64,000 nucleotides of DNA from Candidatus Heimdallarchaeota archaeon (GCA_018238155.1 JABCTZ010000007.1:32001-96000), one strand, 5' to 3'. Shown: positions 22,828 through 31,318, numbered from the stretch's first letter. Numbers and translations: made by a program. The notes: generated by a model from the sequence alone, not told the origin.

Positions 22828-24120
22828 ATGTTGTCCTCCAACAAGAGTGATTTTAATAAAGAAATTCCCGATTTAGTAATTTTACATGCAAATGAATTGG
22901 TTACTATGCACTCTAAATTTGGTGCCCCACGAGTTGGTAAGGCAATGAGTGAATTAGCCATTATTGAAGATGGGGCAATCGCCATTAAAAATGATAAGAT
23001 AATTTTCGTTGGTACCTCGGATGATTTTCTGAAGAAAATGAAAATTGGAAATCAAACAATAGTTATTGATGCTACTGGTAAATTGGTTGCTCCTGGGTTT
23101 GTGGATCCACATGTTCACCTTATTTTTTCTGGTTCTCGGGAAAATGAGCTATCAATGAAACTTGCCGGTAAAACATATTTAGAAATTCTCGAATCAGGTG
23201 GAGGAATTCTGAAAACTGTTAGAGCGACAAGAAAAGCATCAATTGAGGATTTAGTAAAAAATGGCATAAGTATACTTGATAAAATGCTTCAACATGGAAC
23301 TACTACTGTAGAAGCAAAATCTGGTTATGGCTTATCAGTTGATGCCGAAATAAAATCACTCAAAGCAATCAAGGAATTGGATAAACAACATCCTATAGAT
23401 TTGGTAGCTACTTTTCTTGGAGCTCATGCTATACCACCTGAGTATAAAGAAAGAACGGATGAATATGTTGATTTGATTATCAATGAAATGCTTCCAAAAA
23501 TAGAAGAACAAAATCTGGCTGAATTTTGCGATGTTTTTTGTGAAAAGGGTATGTTTTCAATAGAACAAACTCGAAAAATATTACTTGCTGCTAAAAAGCG
23601 CAACATAAAACCCGTTATCCATATAGATGAAATAGTTGATACAAATGGAGCTGCTCTTGCTGCAGAATTACATGCTATTCAAACCGGACATTTGCTTCAG
23701 TCAAATGATGAAGGTTTGAAAGCAATGGCTAAAGAAAAAATTATTGCTACCCTATTACCAGGAACTCCATTTTGTTTAATGATGAAAGATTATGCGCCTG
23801 CAAGGAAGATGATTGAATATGGTATACCGGTTGCTATTGCTACAGATCTTAATCCAAATTGTTGGACTGAATCTATGTTAATGGTAATAGTTCTTTCTTG
23901 TTATAACATGAAAATGTCTCCCGCTGAAGCATTGACCGCTGCAACAATTAATGCTGCATGTGCAATTCAGAGGGAAAGTACAGTTGGTAGTTTGGAAGTT
24001 GGTAAAAAAGCTGATATAGTAATTTTTGATGTTGCAAATCATTTCTTCTTATCATACCAGTTTGGAGTAAACCTTGTATCCAAAGTTATCAAAAATGGTT
24101 TAATAGTTATTGAAAATTGA
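22828..24120 (+). CDS. hutI: Imidazolonepropionase
   Basis: PGFVDPHVH, EAKSGYGL, FLGAH, DVFCEKG, ATDLNP. Confidence 0.95.
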   Translation: MLSSNKSDFNKEIPDLVILHANELVTMHSKFGAPRVGKAMSELAIIEDGAIAIKNDKIIFVGTSDDFLKKMKIGNQTIVIDATGKLVAPGFVDPHVHLIFSGSRENELSMKLAGKTYLEILESGGGILKTVRATRKASIEDLVKNGISILDKMLQHGTTTVEAKSGYGLSVDAEIKSLKAIKELDKQHPIDLVATFLGAHAIPPEYKERTDEYVDLIINEMLPKIEEQNLAEFCDVFCEKGMFSIEQTRKILLAAKKRNIKPVIHIDEIVDTNGAALAAELHAIQTGHLLQSNDEGLKAMAKEKIIATLLPGTPFCLMMKDYAPARKMIEYGIPVAIATDLNPNCWTESMLMVIVLSCYNMKMSPAEALTAATINAACAIQRESTVGSLEVGKKADIVIFDVANHFFLSYQFGVNLVSKVIKNGLIVIEN

Positions 24121-24151
24121 AAAAAAAATCTGTTGCGAGTCATAACTCGCA
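24120..24151. terminator. Hairpin between convergent hutI and ftcd
   Basis: TGCGAGT-CATA-ACTCGCA at 24134-24151 with an adjacent A-tract (U-tract on the minus strand). Confidence 0.55.
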
Positions 24152-24167
24152 TAATCTATTATTAGAC

Positions 24168-25082
24168 TTAAAAATCGAAATAGTGTTCGATTAAGTGTTC
24201 TTCTTTCAAGTGTTTAGGATTGTTTATTTGAAGATAATACTCGAGAGAATTTAGCACTGATTCTAAAGGAATTGGTCCAACAAGTTCAGTTCCTACAACT
24301 GATACACCATATCTTGCAGCTTCAATCCGAACAAGTTCTAACTGTCTATACATTGGTGTTTTCTTAAAATTGATATTGCTGATCCCAACTTGAACATAAT
24401 CCTTACCTTCAATTGCTGTGCCCATAGCTTTGATGTTAACTAATCCACCTGAAGCAAGGTGCACTCTTCGAGCTACTCTTTTAGCAACTTTGACATCTGT
24501 AGTTCCTAAATTGATGTTTAAACAAACCAAAGCCATTCTTGCTCCTGTAACTGTTGCGCCACCTTTTGGATGGAATTTAGAAGGGCCAAAATCAGGCTTG
24601 TGATCTGAATTTGTTTTGATAGTTTCGCGTAATCCTTCGTAATCTCCGACTCGAATATTATCAATATTTCGACGCTCTGGTCTTGTAGCAGCTTCTTCAT
24701 AGAGATATATTGGAACACCTTCCGCAGCCATAGCTTTTGCATATTTCTTGGAAAGTTCAATACATTCTTCCATTGAAACATTCTGAGCAGGTACAAATGG
24801 CACTACATCAGTTGCACCAATGCGTGGATGTTGACCTTTGTGTTTAGTCATATCGATTAATTCAAGAGCCTTCTTTGATGCAGCGATATTTGCTTGTAAT
24901 ACTGCTTCTGGTTCACCAACGAATGTAATTACCGCTCGATTATAATCACTATCATATTGTATATCGATGATGTTTGTTTTTGGTGTTTTTCTTATTTCAT
25001 CGACAATTGCTTCAACGACTTTTCCATCTGATCCTTCACTATAATTTGGAACTGATTCAACAATTTTCCTTTTTTTATCCAA
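24168..25082 (-). CDS. ftcd: Glutamate formimidoyltransferase (FTCD N-terminal part)
   Basis: ESVPNYSEG, HKGQHPRIGATDVVPFVP, GAR, ELVG. Confidence 0.93.
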   Translation of the reverse strand: MDKKRKIVESVPNYSEGSDGKVVEAIVDEIRKTPKTNIIDIQYDSDYNRAVITFVGEPEAVLQANIAASKKALELIDMTKHKGQHPRIGATDVVPFVPAQNVSMEECIELSKKYAKAMAAEGVPIYLYEEAATRPERRNIDNIRVGDYEGLRETIKTNSDHKPDFGPSKFHPKGGATVTGARMALVCLNINLGTTDVKVAKRVARRVHLASGGLVNIKAMGTAIEGKDYVQVGISNINFKKTPMYRQLELVRIEAARYGVSVVGTELVGPIPLESVLNSLEYYLQINNPKHLKEEHLIEHYFDF

Positions 25083-25280
25083 GAAAATCTCCTCAAAATT
25101 TTGCTCTATTACCTTTCATTCAAGATTCACTCTTTTAATACGTTATTATCCGATTGCTATCCAAAAAGAAAAAAAAATAAAAAACCTAACTTTCTTGCAT
25201 GTAATATTCAAAAAATCTAATGAAGTGATTTTGACTTTAATTTAGTTAATATTGAATTAAGTAGTTTAATAGTTAAAATA

Positions 25281-25514
25281 TTGCAAGATTCAACAGTTAT
25301 TGATTGGATTACCAAAGATAACATCTTGATTTTCAACTGGTTAATTATTATGGCTCCAGTATCTGTTATTGATTATATTATTGTCCATGAATTGTGTCAT
25401 CTAAAATATCCTAATCATTCAGAGAACTTTTGGAAAGAAGTAGCTGTTTTTTGTCTAGACTTTCAAAAAAGAAGAGATTGGTTGAGAATAAGAGGACTTG
25501 AATTATCATTTTAG
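25281..25514 (+). pseudogene. C-terminal remnant of a YgjP/DUF45 zinc metallopeptidase
   Basis: FNWLIIMAP..VIDYIIVHELCHL..PNHS..FW; the N-terminal two-thirds are absent. Confidence 0.7.
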
Positions 25515-25877
25515 ATAACAATTAATTTTCTACTCTTTACATAAGATCTATGAACAATAATTTGAAATAACGGTAAATTATTGGTTAACTAAAAGCATTT
25601 ATAAATGATTAGACTTCAAATTTAAAACAAGGAGTTTTTTTGGCATTAACTGCCGTAATCTCTTACTGTGGATAAAATCACATTTTAGAAAAGATTTCCA
25701 ATAGTAAATTCATCTCTTCAATAGAGAAAAAATTTAAACAAACACAACGAAAATTAAGGTCAATACAAGAATATTACTAATGGTCGCCAAGAAAGCTTTG
25801 TTTTAAAATAGTACACACGGAAAAAAACTATCTCTGTTGTAAATAAAAAAACTACTTTGTAATGAGAGAGAAAAAAA

Positions 25878-27791
25878 ATGCTAATTAGTCAAGAAACATT
25901 GGATGAAATTAAATCGAAAATTCTAGCGAAAACACCTCCATCTGCAGATATTTCTGAAATTGAATTTGAGGGCCCTGAAGTAGCCGTTTATTCTCGCAAT
26001 CCTCAGATACTCGTTGATAATGGTGAACTTGTTAAAAATTTAGCTAAGGATTTACGTAAACGTATTGTTATTCGCTCTGATCCTTCTGTTCGTATGAAGG
26101 AAGAGAAAGCTAAAACTATTGTTGAAAAGCTTGTTCCTAAGGAAGCTGAAGTAACCTCGATTCAATTTGATTCCAACATTGGCGAAATTCTGATAGAAGC
26201 TGTTAAACCTGGTCTTGTAATTGGAAAAAGTGGTGAAACTTTACGAAAAATAACTTCGGAGACATTCTGGAGACCTAGTGTTTCAAGAACTCCACCTTTA
26301 GACTCACGTATCGTTAAAACAGTGAGAAATATTCTTTTTACTGAAAGTGAGGCGCGCAAAAAGATATTGAGAAAAATAGGTCGGAGAATACACCGAAAGC
26401 AAATGTTTGAAACGAATTGGGTTCGAATCACATCTTTAGGTGGTTATCGAGAAGTAGGTAGAAGTGCAACTCTATTACGAACTCCTGAAAGTAACATCTT
26501 AATTGATTGTGGTGTAAATGTCGGTCGTAATTCATCAAAGGAAATGTTTCCAAGATTGGATGCTTTGGAATTTTCTATTGAGAATTTGGATGCTGTTGTT
26601 ATTACACATGCTCATCTTGATCACAGTGGCTTCTTACCATACCTTTTCAAATATGGATATGAAGGTCCTGTTTATACAACAAAAGCAACAAGCAATTTAA
26701 TGACACTACTACAAATCGATTATTTGGATGTAGCTAAAAAAGAAGGAAAGCTTCTTCCATATATGCAAAAAGATGTTAAAAAAACTGTTCTTCATACTAT
26801 TCCATTAAATTATGGAGAAGTTACTGATATCTCACCCGACATCCGTTTAACACTTCATAATGCAGGACACATTTTGGGATCAGCAATAGTGCATTTACAT
26901 ATTGGTAATGGACTTTACAATATGGCTGTTGCTCAAGATTTTAAATATCGTCAAACTAATCTACTAGATTCTGCTGTTTCAAAATTCCCACGATTGGAAG
27001 CACTCTTCATGGAATCCACTTATGGAAACCCTCAGGATACAATGCCTTCCAATAAAGAAGCTGAAACTCATATTAGGAATGTTATTAGTACCACCTTAGA
27101 GAGAGGTGGAAAAGTACTGATCCCAGTTTTAGCAGTAGGGCGTGCTCAAGAGTTACAAATTGTTATAGAATCATTGATTGCAAAGAAATTGGTACCTGCT
27201 GTACCCGTTTATCTAGATGGTATGATTTCTGAGGCTTCAGCTGTAACAACTTGCCACCCTGAATATCTTAGCCGAAAGCTTCGCGAGAAAATATTCCATA
27301 TCGGTCAAAACCCATTCTTAGCTGAATGCTTCCATAGAGTACAAGGAAGAGATGAAAGAAAACAAATCATTGGTGGTGATCCTTGTATTATTCTTGCAAC
27401 CAGTGGTATGTTAACTGGTGGTCCTTCTGTTGAGTATTTTGAGAAACTCTCAGGTGATTCCAAGAATTCCATTCTTTTCGTTTCTTATCAAGGTGAAGGT
27501 TCACTTGGTAGAAAAGTACAGAAAAATGTCAATGAAATTACCCTTATGGAAAAAGGACATGCACGTATGTTAAAAATAAATATGGAAGTTCACACCATCA
27601 TAGGTTTCTCGGGTCATAGTGATAGAAAAGAGCTTTTGAATTACGCTCGCAAAGTGAATCCTCGACCAGAAAAAATCTTTCTAATACATGGAGAGAAAAG
27701 TAAATGTATCTCTTTAGCATCAACATTGCACAAAATGCTCAAGGTGGAAACAAAAGCACCTGAAGTACTAGAAACATTGAGATTATGCTAG
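25878..27791 (+). CDS. fttA: Beta-CASP ribonuclease aCPSF1 (termination factor FttA)
   Basis: N-terminal KH domains, THAHLDHSG, AGHILGS, ESTYG, FSGHSD, HGE. Confidence 0.96.
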   Translation: MLISQETLDEIKSKILAKTPPSADISEIEFEGPEVAVYSRNPQILVDNGELVKNLAKDLRKRIVIRSDPSVRMKEEKAKTIVEKLVPKEAEVTSIQFDSNIGEILIEAVKPGLVIGKSGETLRKITSETFWRPSVSRTPPLDSRIVKTVRNILFTESEARKKILRKIGRRIHRKQMFETNWVRITSLGGYREVGRSATLLRTPESNILIDCGVNVGRNSSKEMFPRLDALEFSIENLDAVVITHAHLDHSGFLPYLFKYGYEGPVYTTKATSNLMTLLQIDYLDVAKKEGKLLPYMQKDVKKTVLHTIPLNYGEVTDISPDIRLTLHNAGHILGSAIVHLHIGNGLYNMAVAQDFKYRQTNLLDSAVSKFPRLEALFMESTYGNPQDTMPSNKEAETHIRNVISTTLERGGKVLIPVLAVGRAQELQIVIESLIAKKLVPAVPVYLDGMISEASAVTTCHPEYLSRKLREKIFHIGQNPFLAECFHRVQGRDERKQIIGGDPCIILATSGMLTGGPSVEYFEKLSGDSKNSILFVSYQGEGSLGRKVQKNVNEITLMEKGHARMLKINMEVHTIIGFSGHSDRKELLNYARKVNPRPEKIFLIHGEKSKCISLASTLHKMLKVETKAPEVLETLRLC

Positions 27792-28004
27792 ATTTAGCAA
27801 GGTTACGTTGAAGGTTTTTCTTTTAACATTAACCTCATCCCCTTTTTTATTTGGTTGTGTAACTATCCTTCTTTTAAATGAGTTTGATAGAAAATAAGTT
27901 TGTGTAGAGTTTTAAACAACAGATGTGGATATACTGGAATGTTTTCGTTTTTTACTGGAAGTTCTAGAGAACCTACAAGGACAAAATATCAATCTTCATA
28001 TTTG

Positions 28005-28490
28005 TTATAGCTTGATTTTCCATATCTCATCATTTACGAAATGAATATTTTTTATCGCTTTACCTCTTTTCATGTTATGGATTTCACTTCCATCAAAAAG
28101 TAATTCTCCAATAGCAAGTGCTTTACTAAAATTCTCGTCGATGATCATAATTATTGTTCCAGCTTTTAGCTCATCTGATATTTGGGTTATACCTGGAGCC
28201 ATTATATCTGCTCCATTAGTAACATATGGTACCGCACCCATATCCACAGTTACAGAAGGCAATTTAATTAATCCTTCATTGAGCACACGAAGGCTAGGAA
28301 ATATTCTGTCCCCAATTTTAAAGGCTAAAATTTTTTTATTTTCAGCATAAAATTCACCTATATCTGATACCACTAATTCTGCGCCCTTCTCAAATAAAGA
28401 ATCAACTTCATCCCCTAGAACTATCTTTAGTTTCTCTTTGAGTTCCTTGAAATCCTTTTTTCTCATTGCATGTCTACGAGTAATTTCCAA
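28005..28490 (-). CDS. PUA-domain RNA-binding protein (MCT-1/Tma20-like)
   Basis: VTVDMGAVPYVTNGADIMAPGI ... GKAIKNIHFVND. Confidence 0.9.
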   Translation of the reverse strand: MEITRRHAMRKKDFKELKEKLKIVLGDEVDSLFEKGAELVVSDIGEFYAENKKILAFKIGDRIFPSLRVLNEGLIKLPSVTVDMGAVPYVTNGADIMAPGITQISDELKAGTIIMIIDENFSKALAIGELLFDGSEIHNMKRGKAIKNIHFVNDEIWKIKL

Positions 28491-28717
28491 AACAAAGCAT
28501 CCTTAACTATTCTTTTGGAAATTTCTTCTGATTATTCTTTATTCTTTTGGCAACATTGAGCAAATTTCTTTCTTTGAGTTTATTGCCCAAGTAATCAAAG
28601 ATTATACTTTCGTTCAAAATCAAGTAAGATTGAATATTGAAGAAAGCATTTAAAAACCAATAACTTTCATTGAAAGTACAGATTGTTCTAATCTTATATT
28701 TCTTGGAGAACAGTAAA

Positions 28718-28984
28718 ATGAGCAAACAGCAACCAGAAAGACGCTTAAGTAAAGATAGACCTATGGATCTTCTTTCAATGTCACTTGGAGGAATCGTCTT
28801 AGTGAAATTGAAAGGTGGACGCCAATTAAGAGGTAAATTGAAGAATTACGATCCACATCTAAATCTGACTTTAGAAGATGCCGAGGAAATCCTAGAAAGC
28901 GGAAACAATTCCTTAGGAACAATCATCTTACGTGGCGATAATGTTATAATCATCAGCCCACCTCCATCAGTAGACAAGAAATAG
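28718..28984 (+). CDS. lsm: Sm-like archaeal protein (Lsm/SmAP1)
   Basis: Sm1 VKLKGGRQLRGKLKNYDPHLNLTLEDAEE and Sm2 ILRGDNV. Confidence 0.95.
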   Translation: MSKQQPERRLSKDRPMDLLSMSLGGIVLVKLKGGRQLRGKLKNYDPHLNLTLEDAEEILESGNNSLGTIILRGDNVIIISPPPSVDKK

Positions 28985-29312
28985 AAACAAGAGAATATAA
29001 GCAAAGATGACTCTTTATTTTCATCTAAGCTTTTTCTTTCTATAGAGCTTTTTCAAATGTAGCCGATTCAAAGAATTTTCTTATATTACTCTATTACATA
29101 TGATTTTTCTTATCTTCTTTCTATCTATATGTAATTTCAAGATGAATTCTAAGACGTTTATATCAAAATTGACTCAATTTGAATTTGTTAAAATCTCATA
29201 CCCGTTTTTTTATAAATAAAATCAATTTTATATAGTCAAGAATCAGAAAACAGAATGATAAGAAAAGAAAATATTAGGGAAAATCTTTCCCTTAAAAAAT
29301 AAATATTTGAAA

Positions 29313-30263
29313 CTATGGATCAGCTACTTCCATAATTGTTTGTATTTCTGTTGAAGTAGTCTCTGAGGAAATAAATGAATATTTCTGAGGTTTTGTCTTC
29401 TTTTTATCTATGGATTTTACAATCCAAGCTTTTCCTCTTATAGCTTTCTTTAACCAATCTGGAAGAATCCAACCAAGATAAGCAAGAACTACTATAACAA
29501 TATTACATAGAATTCTAATCAAGTTCATGCCAACAACGAGAACACCATTACTTGTTATTACTTCTTGTGTAAATGTAACCGTTACTGCTCGTTCAAGTAG
29601 GATAAAAATGACTGCAACCAAAATAAGAGTGACTCCAGTTCTTGCCACTTTCTCCTTTAAATTTTTGCGAATAATTATTAACCTGTAAAAAACTCTTGCA
29701 AAGATGAACAAAATAATTGGAATGAAAAATAGTGCTGTAACCACATTGGGTATAAACTGATATGTATTAGTTCCTGAATAAATAACATATTGAATCATTC
29801 CATCTTGATTGAGTCCCCATCCTTGGGATCCATCGGCAATGAATTCACTTACTAATTCTGAAAACATTAATCCTGCTAAAATTCCCAAAAGTAGTGTCAA
29901 TAATATTGATATTGATGATTTTACGATATCATTATCTCGCAATATGTGACGGTTTGCAAAGAAATAGAAGAAAATGAAGCTAGTAAGATTTAGTGCAATA
30001 GAACCTATCTGGAAAAACCCATGAACTAGAACCGAATTATTTCCAAATATCATAGATGCATTTATCCAAGAACCCGCATTGGTCAATATATTTGCAAGAA
30101 TAAACATTCCAAAAAATAATAGTAATAGACCTGTTCCAACAGTTCTTTTTTTGATATAGTTTCTAATAAGAACACCAAAAAAGACGATGAAAAAAGTAGT
30201 TGCAAGAACACCTGAAATTAAGTAAAACCAGCCTGCATTTGTTAAACCTTCAAAAGCAACCAT
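29313..30263 (-). CDS. Seven-transmembrane protein with a C-terminal amphipathic helix
   Basis: 7 hydrophobic segments ending LAYLGWILPDWLKKAI; ATG 30263 lies directly after the GTPase stop. Confidence 0.75.
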   Translation of the reverse strand: MVAFEGLTNAGWFYLISGVLATTFFIVFFGVLIRNYIKKRTVGTGLLLLFFGMFILANILTNAGSWINASMIFGNNSVLVHGFFQIGSIALNLTSFIFFYFFANRHILRDNDIVKSSISILLTLLLGILAGLMFSELVSEFIADGSQGWGLNQDGMIQYVIYSGTNTYQFIPNVVTALFFIPIILFIFARVFYRLIIIRKNLKEKVARTGVTLILVAVIFILLERAVTVTFTQEVITSNGVLVVGMNLIRILCNIVIVVLAYLGWILPDWLKKAIRGKAWIVKSIDKKKTKPQKYSFISSETTSTEIQTIMEVADP

Positions 30264-30264
30264 A

Positions 30265-30801
30265 TTATCGTTCCTCCATTTTATCTCTAAACCAACTGAA
30301 CGACTCGATAATTCCATCTCCAGTTTTAGCAGATGTTTCAAAGACCGCCCATTCAATTTCATGTTCTGTTTCCATTAAACCAAAATTCTTTACCAACTCA
30401 ACTTGACTAATTCGATCTGGTAAATCTTTTTTGTTTAACAAAAGTAGAACAGGGATTTTTCCACCAATTTGTTTATCTAAAATGTTATAAAAAATAGCTT
30501 TTGTTTCATCAAAACGTAAATGGTCAATGCTATCAATAACATAAATCAGAGCATCTGTTTTCTCATTTATTTCTTGCCATATTGGGCGAAAATCCTCTTG
30601 TCCCCCCATATCGAAGATATTTATTTGAAGCCGAGGGAAATTAATGACTTCTCGATTGACCCCCATCGTTGGTGTTGTTTCCTTGAATTCTCCATGAACC
30701 AAGTAATTTATTATTGCCGTTTTCCCAGCTTTGTCAAGACCACAGATGGTAACTGTCACAGGTTTAGTTTTTTTTCTAAATAAATTAAGTAAAAAAGACA
30801 T
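30265..30801 (-). CDS. Arf/Arl-family small GTPase
   Basis: N-terminal amphipathic MSFLLNLFRK; G1 GLDKAGKT, G2 PTMG, G3 DMGGQ, G4 NKKD, G5 TSAK. Confidence 0.93.
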   Translation of the reverse strand: MSFLLNLFRKKTKPVTVTICGLDKAGKTAIINYLVHGEFKETTPTMGVNREVINFPRLQINIFDMGGQEDFRPIWQEINEKTDALIYVIDSIDHLRFDETKAIFYNILDKQIGGKIPVLLLLNKKDLPDRISQVELVKNFGLMETEHEIEWAVFETSAKTGDGIIESFSWFRDKMEER

Positions 30802-30817
30802 TTAACTTACCTCAGCT

Positions 30818-31318
30818 TTATTTCCAGAGATCGTTTTGCATAGACTCAGTAAATGCTTGACCAGGATCCTTTTCATCTTTTGCTTCGCTTGTGAAATCAA
30901 AATCCAATGTTACTATTGAGCTAATTTTTATTTTGACCTTTTTTTTACTTAACCCTTCATATAAATGTGGCAATATTTTTGTTATCATTTCAATATTGTC
31001 AATTTGATTCTTTTTTAACTCAGTAATTGTAAATAAGAAAAATTTTCGGATGTCTTCTCGTTTGTAATCTGGTCCATCAAATATTGCTATTAGGGAAGCA
31101 ATATTTCTTCTATCTGTTCCTGGCAAACTAAATATATAGCTTTCAAAAATACATCTGTCTGCTGTACTTGATGAAAAATCTCCTTCTTTTGAGCTCATAG
31201 GCATACTTTTCAATACTATTTGATTTAAAGTGCTTTCTGGAACACCTTTTGGGTGAACCTTAACTAATTCCAAGCCATTTTTTCCCATTTGTACTAAACA
31301 CAAACTAATTGGTTTCAT
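30818..31318 (-). CDS. Hypothetical protein with a possible uDENN/longin-like fold
   Basis: Pattern of beta-beta(HP)-helix(KSMP)-beta-beta-beta-helix judged by eye. Confidence 0.45.
   Translation of the reverse strand: MKPISLCLVQMGKNGLELVKVHPKGVPESTLNQIVLKSMPMSSKEGDFSSSTADRCIFESYIFSLPGTDRRNIASLIAIFDGPDYKREDIRKFFLFTITELKKNQIDNIEMITKILPHLYEGLSKKKVKIKISSIVTLDFDFTSEAKDEKDPGQAFTESMQNDLWK

Follow-up and report, generated by a model that had tools for sequence, protein, structure and literature searches.

We describe a three-gene cassette on the minus strand of a 64,000-nucleotide stretch of DNA from Candidatus Heimdallarchaeota archaeon (GCA_018238155.1 JABCTZ010000007.1:32001-96000), the whole of which is called the window below. 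The cassette (positions 29313-31318) encodes a longin-fold protein, an Asgard Arf-related GTPase (ArfR) and a seven-transmembrane (7TM) protein. We propose that it represents a membrane signalling unit of Heimdallarchaeia in which a longin GTPase-activating protein (GAP), docked to the 7TM protein, gates GTP hydrolysis on membrane-bound ArfR, and we assign this reading a probability of about one half. Its direct basis consists of gene linkage, conserved residues, predicted folds and correlations between sequence motifs and gene neighbours.

Results

The cassette and its recurrence

An earlier model-made annotation of the window (the original prediction) had proposed three tightly spaced minus-strand genes forming a receptor-GTPase-regulator unit. 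Open reading frames (ORFs) separated by gaps of 16 nt and then 1 nt confirm the arrangement, and the following features were assigned:

30818..31318, minus strand: stand-alone NPRL2-like (uDENN) longin gene, 166 amino acids; candidate GAP for the adjoining ArfR
30265..30801, minus strand: ArfR gene, 178 amino acids; intact G1-G5 motifs, Gln68, basic-hydrophobic N-terminus without Gly2
29313..30263, minus strand: stand-alone 7TM gene, 316 amino acids; predicted fold of the G-protein-coupled receptor (GPCR)/rhodopsin type, N-terminus out and C-terminus in, β-hairpin in the second outer loop
31109..31111, minus strand: codon of longin Arg70, candidate arginine finger in the β4–β5 loop, from conservation and the predicted model
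30824..30865, minus strand: longin C-terminal helix 152-164 followed by D-L-W165, candidate 7TM-docking element, from the model (low predicted local distance difference test, pLDDT), conservation and neighbour correlation
29397..29462, minus strand: 7TM cytoplasmic helix 8 and second helix (P268-x-W270 ... K278-x-W280), of which the W280 part tracks the presence of ArfR
29276..29292, minus strand: short hairpin with a T-rich tail just past the 7TM stop, possible terminator at chance level (2 found, 1.3 expected)

The host genome has six copies with the order longin, ArfR, 7TM (on contigs C39, which holds the present copy, C29, C10, C41, C20 and C15), and one further copy on C21 consists of longin and 7TM without ArfR. 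Since the same order is found six times in one genome and again in relatives, the arrangement is not a product of chance. Contamination as the source of the paralogues was ruled out because congeneric genomes hold orthologous copies. We counted 38 distinct loci of the close 7TM family, drawn from two Heimdallarchaeia families. The complete cassette is present at 29 of these, one of them with a broken ArfR gene (G232:C60, at first sight an ArfR loss) and one with the longin at a contig end. Co-occurrence of the three genes elsewhere, a check named in the original prediction, is thereby borne out. At the other nine loci longin and 7TM occur without a reported ArfR remnant, and the longin is missing from none of the 38. 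The fixed pair is thus longin and 7TM, and the longin, not the GTPase, is the obligatory genomic partner of the 7TM protein. In the 7TM tree, complete cassettes surround the ArfR-less copies, which fall into three groups; within the close-family loci, ArfR was lost several times and the longin never. Pairwise distances of the three proteins correlate at 0.47-0.69, with relatives not being independent, which is consistent with duplication of the three genes as a unit. The same gene order is retained in a divergent metagenomic cassette (L156).

Two stand-alone ArfR genes resembling the cassette GTPases, L129 (G000:C13:86298-86855; E 4e-66) and L130 (C17:62334-62945; E 1.5e-50), could serve ArfR-less cassettes in trans. 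A distant 7TM-family gene lies on the same strand directly upstream of the C10 cassette (G000:C10:112931-113701).

A tryptophan-ended longin tail follows the 7TM neighbour

Tryptophan is found at the longin tail in 89 of 95 aligned homologues. A [LIVMF]W tail occurs in 57 of the 58 longins, from two families, that stand upstream of a 7TM-family gene, compared with none of 32 same-family longins without a 7TM neighbour and 38 of 1355 background ORFs. The second family, longin-like and ca. 148 residues long, precedes distant 7TM relatives. Its profile similarity to the cassette longin is limited to a Trp-terminated helix made up of the last 15 residues (P 0.07); it gives weak matches to Fuz/Mon1 longins and has no conserved Arg. 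In the host genome, one of its 38 profile matches carries the tail, and that one lies beside 7TM genes. In the reverse direction, a 7TM gene adjoins 26 of the 30 top tailed longins, a check which is partly circular because the query came from 7TM-linked loci. In other Asgard lineages, too, longin and 7TM genes stay neighbours, even where their relative orientation is divergent or reversed. Further, a 578-residue α/β-hydrolase (PGAP1/lipase-like; L174:533-2269) with a longin-type Trp tail lies between two 7TM genes, directly upstream of one of them. Some Hodarchaeales-type tails end in LKDSGLW and resemble the C-terminal peptide of G-alpha-i, LKDCGLF (PMC10060287), a likeness that we treat as a lead only and that may be convergent.

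A second correlation involves the 7TM protein and ArfR. Of the 29 cassettes with ArfR, 27 carry Trp280 in the second cytoplasmic helix of the 7TM protein; none of nine cassettes without ArfR and none of 13 distant operons lacking ArfR does so, and Lys39 tracks ArfR presence in much the same way. This suggests a second, direct contact between 7TM protein and ArfR. Complex prediction for 7TM residues 1-295 with the longin gave 0.32, 0.24 and 0.31 relative to a mark of 0.32, with controls at 0.00, and is evidence for neither side.

Several related arrangements were seen. In the host genome, L122 (G000:C1:35807-37880) has a tailed second-family longin followed by two 7TM genes, together with a divergent upstream ORF, an arrangement conserved in congeners (L120, L121). 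At L040, L044, L045, L096 and L115, a GP-motif longin with a Trp tail is followed by an unrelated gene for a protein of ca. 213 residues with six to seven transmembrane segments and then by the 7TM gene, without a GTPase. A tailed longin directly precedes an acyl-CoA-ligase-like gene (by eye) at L188, L189, L195 and L197, and at L119 a 7TM gene stands between the longin and the ligase-like gene, a comparison that suggests loss of the 7TM gene at the former loci. A parallel operon occurs in same-phylum families f13 and f26, probably Lokiarchaeia (L042, L043, L067, L124). It encodes, in this order, an ArfR of ca. 300 residues with a C-terminal longin-like extension, an Arg-bearing same-family longin ending in KGSF[FL], and two mutually homologous proteins of another family with five to seven transmembrane segments. 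G186 has two tandem copies and many copies lack the GTPase. The membrane genes of these Lokiarchaeia-type operons could not be firmly tied to the 7TM family (best hhalign 55%, 57 columns).

The longin resembles NPRL2

Profile searches of PDB, Pfam and NCBIfam with the longin and 7TM proteins gave nothing significant by sequence. The AlphaFold2 model of the longin (pLDDT 86) and fold searches show a uDENN longin fold in the 166-residue protein, so that an assignment first made by eye is now backed by the model, Foldseek and VIA. The best Foldseek matches are NPRL2/Npr2 chains of GATOR1 and SEA (E 1.7e-7). NPRL2 also ranks first in the VIA fold search (Z 15.1, root-mean-square deviation (rmsd) 2.9, 143 residues aligned), four Z units over the best DENN protein. 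It is followed by Npr2 (13.4), a Loki longin (12.2), DENND10 (10.8), FLCN (10.7), C9orf72 (9.5), a second C9orf72-SMCR8 entry (9.1) and DENND1 (8.7). The protein has no C-terminal DENN module.

Arg70, which the model places in the β4–β5 loop, is Arg in 92 of 95 aligned homologues. An arginine finger is common to NPRL2, FLCN and SMCR8; SMCR8-C9orf72 is an ARF GAP, with SMCR8 Arg147 as its demonstrated finger (PMC8213707). Based on the NPRL2-like fold and the conserved Arg70 in this loop, the longin is therefore more likely a GAP than a guanine nucleotide exchange factor (GEF), and GAP activity is the best inference. The original prediction had left open whether a DENN/longin protein would act as GEF or GAP; the longin part holds, and the NPRL2/FLCN/SMCR8 class fits better than DENN GEFs. 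The NPR2 Pfam model had no match above cut-off in 151 Asgard genomes and thus gave no direct sequence bridge to NPRL2 Arg78. More distant longin relatives carry, together with the Arg, an intact GP motif (before strand 2), which was proposed as a mark of GAP longins (PMC12290439).

Other longins of the same family were also seen. One in the host genome (L127:766-2039, G000:C15) has intact GP and Arg and ca. 100 extra residues, winged-helix-like by eye, and stands upstream of a V4R-like gene (by eye). Short members without GP motif, aligned Arg, tail or 7TM neighbour occur at L132, L134 and L135. The host genome also encodes Folliculin-domain proteins above the Pfam cut-off (G000:C7:66332, C8:73015 and C6:76009 (L140)), whose family alignment shows the GP motif and an Arg of the FLCN type.

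The GTPase is an Asgard ArfR by its sequence

The predicted GTPase motifs and the N-terminus without Gly2 could be placed residue by residue: G1 at 21, G2 Thr45, DMGGQ at 64-68, NKKD at 123 and TSAK at 156, with Ser as residue 2 and thus no myristoylation Gly. The N-terminus is amphipathic in a sequence-level test (hydrophobic moment 0.42 over 11 residues, pattern conserved). Pfam assigns the protein to Arf (4.5e-43), with G-alpha at 2e-10 below its cut-off, and all best PDB matches are Arf, Arl or ArfR proteins, the closest being Arl1, Arf1 and GerdArfR1 (8OUN). Characters of ArfRs are present: an Arf-type G domain, G1-G5, the catalytic Gln68 and the aromatic switch residues F39 and W75. By alignment, the protein lacks the G-alpha helical domain and any conserved C-terminal hook. 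As judged from these sequence characters, the GTPase is an Asgard ArfR and not a Gα. It matches GerdArfR1 with E 3e-29 and belongs to a separate paralogue clade; a near-identical orthologue of the crystallised GerdArfR1 is encoded elsewhere in the host genome (E 1e-98). Other, published ArfRs bind membranes in a manner dependent on GTP and on the N-terminal helix, and ArfRs drive membrane remodelling in yeast (PMC11914678). Their native regulators are still to be established according to Zhu et al. (PMC11914678), and whether ArfR or Rag is the partner of Arg-finger longins was a question left open by PMC12290439.

The 7TM protein has a predicted GPCR-type fold but lacks GPCR motifs

The AlphaFold2 model of the 7TM protein (147 sequences, pLDDT 90) shows seven long helices, an outer β-hairpin and then helices 269-276 and 280-289, in agreement with the predicted seven hydrophobic helices and helix 8-like segment. 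A GPCR-like fold had been named as a check, and the model together with PDB fold searches gives a GPCR-type bundle: GPCRs of several classes top all three PDB searches, with VIA Z of 14-16, ca. 230-245 residues aligned and rmsd ca. 4. The ranking is flat (best GPCRs Z 15-16, KR2 rhodopsin 14.3, TMEM87A 14.1), and Foldseek returned no PDB match at E<=1e-3. The closest predicted structures are prokaryotic HisKA_7TM-type input domains of kinases and cyclases, with template-modelling (TM) scores of 0.59-0.65 that come from a different program than the Foldseek TMq of 0.33-0.49 for GPCRs. A weak language-model lead also points toward HisKA_7TM, and PF16927 (HisKA_7TM) had no match among 31 family members.

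When sought as patterns at any position, the class A GPCR motifs DRY, CWxP and NPxxY turn up in 10, 0 and 20 of 147 rows, respectively, and the single Cys of the query does not permit a disulfide between transmembrane helix 3 (TM3) and the second extracellular loop. No WD40 gene was seen in the cassettes, a statement restricted to them as no genome-wide beta-gamma search was made. The model thus depicts a protein with GPCR fold and helix 8 that does not qualify as a GPCR and may be no nearer to GPCRs than to microbial rhodopsins or the 7TM sensors of prokaryotes. A microbial rhodopsin was rejected as an identification: as originally predicted, the query has no retinal Lys in TM7, and none occurs in any row at 252-267. 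Position 250 is Lys in 11 of 147 rows and Arg in the query. The protein ends 50 residues past TM7 and has no fused kinase, cyclase, PAS, RGS or other domain, again as predicted for kinase and cyclase.

Basic and conserved residues gather on inner loops 1 and 3, TM7 and helix 8, loop 5 is basic though less conserved, and the outer loops are variable. The charges thus follow the positive-inside pattern. At least nine 7TM paralogues of one genome differ in their outer loops and share conserved inner faces. Such a distribution is typical of receptors that vary in what they sense and have a cytoplasmic partner in common. Relatives of the 7TM family were found in 145 of 301 Asgard genomes searched. 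The predicted Ser/Thr-rich tail is real in this protein (8 of the last 26 residues), but 13 of 31 aligned relatives lack it, and an arrestin-like site was rejected as a feature of the family on this ground.

Locus and host

The present copy sits on a contig (C39) of a 4.08-Mb genome, and we infer, in part from the near-identical GerdArfR1 orthologue that it encodes, that the host is a Gerdarchaeales member of Heimdallarchaeia. For the 7TM gene, a longer start at 30362, which would overlap the GTPase gene, was rejected in favour of ATG 30263 because the N-termini of homologues support the latter. Promoter and terminator scans of the locus yielded nothing above chance level. The cassette is flanked by an Sm-like gene on one side and a nucleotide-kinase-like gene on the other, neither of which accompanies the remaining copies. 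By eye, 22828-28984 holds housekeeping genes (imidazolonepropionase, formiminotransferase, aCPSF1-type ribonuclease, PUA protein, Sm-like protein), of which the PUA and ribonuclease genes adjoin the cassette in L001 as well. Window positions 32963-34243 encode a 426-residue protein with weak GIFT/IFT52 and OST48_N matches, a hydrophobic segment at each end and an acidic tail.

Discussion

In the proposed mechanism, the stand-alone 7TM sensor would bind the helix-Trp tail of the longin on its basic cytoplasmic face, and the longin would act through Arg70 as an NPRL2/SMCR8-type GAP for the co-encoded ArfR. ArfR-GTP would sit on the membrane via its N-terminal helix and might also be held by 7TM helix 8 and the helix that follows. 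A signal at the variable outer face would then alter docking or access of the GAP and thereby set the lifetime of ArfR-GTP. Such logic would be that of plant 7TM-RGS proteins (RGS, regulator of G-protein signalling), i.e. a receptor-coupled off-switch, with other parts. We infer the physical contacts, GAP activity, ligand sensing and direction of control from genomics and predicted folds.

A number of observations weigh against this reading. The finger register is unproven because a profile alignment via Asgard FLCN-like proteins (E 7e-5) places Arg70 in the FLCN Arg164 loop two residues off. The GP motif reads G15-L16 in the longin (G15 in 93, Leu in 83 and Pro in 8 of 95 homologues). Eukaryotic longin GAPs are heterodimers, and here only one longin is encoded. 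Arg70 is kept in ArfR-less copies, as it might be if the residue were structural or if the substrate came from another locus. Concerning the tail, a neighbour that carries it is absent from 11 of 20 distant 7TM loci. Relaxed selection after three ArfR losses could also explain the Trp280 pattern, the correlations rest on few independent lineages, and the divergent cassette L156 has an ArfR but neither W280 nor the Trp tail.

The alternative that survives best, though we consider it unlikely, is true GPCR-like activation, in which the 7TM protein would catalyse nucleotide exchange on ArfR, the step that defines GPCRs, and the longin would be either a terminating GAP or an adaptor supplying the docking helix that G-alpha bears itself. 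The GPCR-type fold with helix 8, the first rank of GPCRs in the PDB searches, the tracking of ArfR by W280 and K39 and the G-alpha-i-like LKDSGLW tails all speak for it. However, the receptor persists without ArfR at nine of the 38 close loci and at most distant ones, ArfR lacks helical domain and hook, GPCR activation motifs are absent, and the tail likeness covers few residues of a protein that is not a GTPase and may have arisen by convergence. Of the GPCR-like unit of the original prediction, the conserved linkage and the GPCR-type fold with helix 8 stand; membership among the GPCRs is not supported.

Somewhat less probable still is that the longin serves as a DENN/Mon1-type GEF or non-catalytic adaptor, recruited by the 7TM protein to load ArfR with GTP, with Arg70 being structural. 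The matches to DENND10 and DENND1, the absent GP motif and the second longin family, which pairs with the same 7TM family, is weakly Fuz/Mon1-like and shows no conserved Arg, fit this explanation. The lead of NPRL2 over the DENN proteins, the missing DENN module, the near-invariant Arg in the finger loop of GAP longins and its presence in GP-bearing relatives do not. We rate lower again a 7TM protein that acts not as a ligand sensor but as a constitutive membrane anchor or cargo, marking the membrane site of a longin-ArfR remodelling or trafficking cycle, as proposed for TMEM87-type proteins. TMEM87A is indeed among the fold matches, ArfRs remodel membranes in yeast (PMC11914678) and no conserved ligand pocket was identified in the 7TM protein, but the closest predicted structures are kinase and cyclase input domains, and the many paralogues with divergent outer loops and conserved inner faces show the usual receptor-family pattern. 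Mere co-regulation without contact, e.g. of a GTPase switch that shares its transcript with a channel or transporter, is very improbable: operon neighbours need not bind and many distant 7TM members stand alone, but both the tail–neighbour and W280–ArfR correlations, the joint duplication (with the dependence among kin noted above) and the adjacency kept even when orientation is divergent or reversed argue against it.

A larger picture may also be drawn, which we regard as doubtful and state tentatively. GPCR-fold Asgard receptors might grasp exchangeable partners (two longin families and a hydrolase) by their C-terminal helix, as GPCRs capture the G-alpha C-terminus, and might already have been wired to an Arf-family GTPase in Heimdallarchaeia, forming a pre-eukaryotic G-protein-coupled receptor system. 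If true, GPCR–G protein coupling and longin GAP control would both have had a forerunner in archaea.

Asgard archaea are close relatives of the ancestors of eukaryotes, and the cassette resembles a prokaryotic version of G-protein signalling under receptor control. It bears on the question of whether the link between a protein of GPCR fold and a GTPase switch predates eukaryotes. Further, the operon offers candidate cognate GAP–GTPase pairs for native ArfR regulation, with six paralogous sets in one genome as specificity controls, and the portable Trp-ended helix suggests a rule by which a widespread Asgard 7TM family docks its partners.

Comparison with known systems

ArfRs, Asgard NPRL2/FLCN-type longins and Asgard 7TM or GPCR-like structural clusters are already known as separate parts. 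In the literature searched, with most subscription journals outside its coverage, we found neither the cassette nor the tail rule nor the link to ArfR described. With published Asgard ArfR/AArf proteins (Vargová et al., 10.1101/2024.02.28.582541; Zhu et al., PMC11914678) the cassette GTPase shares the Arf-family G domain, the amphipathic N-terminus without Gly2 and a Gerdarchaeales host, whereas it differs from GerdArfR1 in its paralogue clade; a term search of these two papers found no mention of gene neighbours or transmembrane partners. Compared with the longin GAPs NPRL2 (GATOR1), FLCN and SMCR8-C9orf72 and Asgard FLCN/SMCR8-type longins (PMC12290439; Liu et al., 10.1101/2020.10.19.343400), the cassette longin has the same predicted fold, including the hairpin past the longin core, a conserved Arg in the β4–β5 loop and an Arf-type candidate substrate. 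In contrast to them, it is a single 166-residue chain with GL for GP, without a DENN module and with an added C-terminal Trp helix, and is genomically linked to ArfR and a 7TM protein.

Arf and G-alpha belong to one GTPase lineage. Eukaryotic GPCR–heterotrimeric G protein systems resemble the cassette in 7TM topology, helix 8, a basic conserved inner face and a candidate C-terminal docking helix. Here, however, class motifs and the disulfide are absent, the GTPase is a small ArfR, no beta-gamma is encoded in the cassette, and the candidate docking helix lies on the regulator rather than the GTPase. The established 7TM sensors of prokaryotes act on kinases, cyclases or transducers. HisKA_7TM (PF16927) sensors are the nearest predicted structures to the cassette 7TM protein, which differs from them in that its sequence matches no Pfam model and that it lacks a kinase, cyclase or PAS domain as fused output. 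The Asgard roadblock–Rab-like GTPase–DENN operon (Liu et al., 10.1101/2020.10.19.343400) and bacterial MglA-MglB likewise encode a small GTPase together with a longin/roadblock regulator, but from another GTPase family and without a membrane receptor gene. Finally, plant and protist 7TM-RGS proteins such as AtRGS1 (PMC12017998) also couple a 7TM protein to the GAP arm of a GTPase cycle, using a fused RGS box on G-alpha where the cassette would use a separate candidate longin GAP on ArfR. By analogy, the cassette is best filed nearest in logic to these 7TM-RGS systems, made of archaeal parts.
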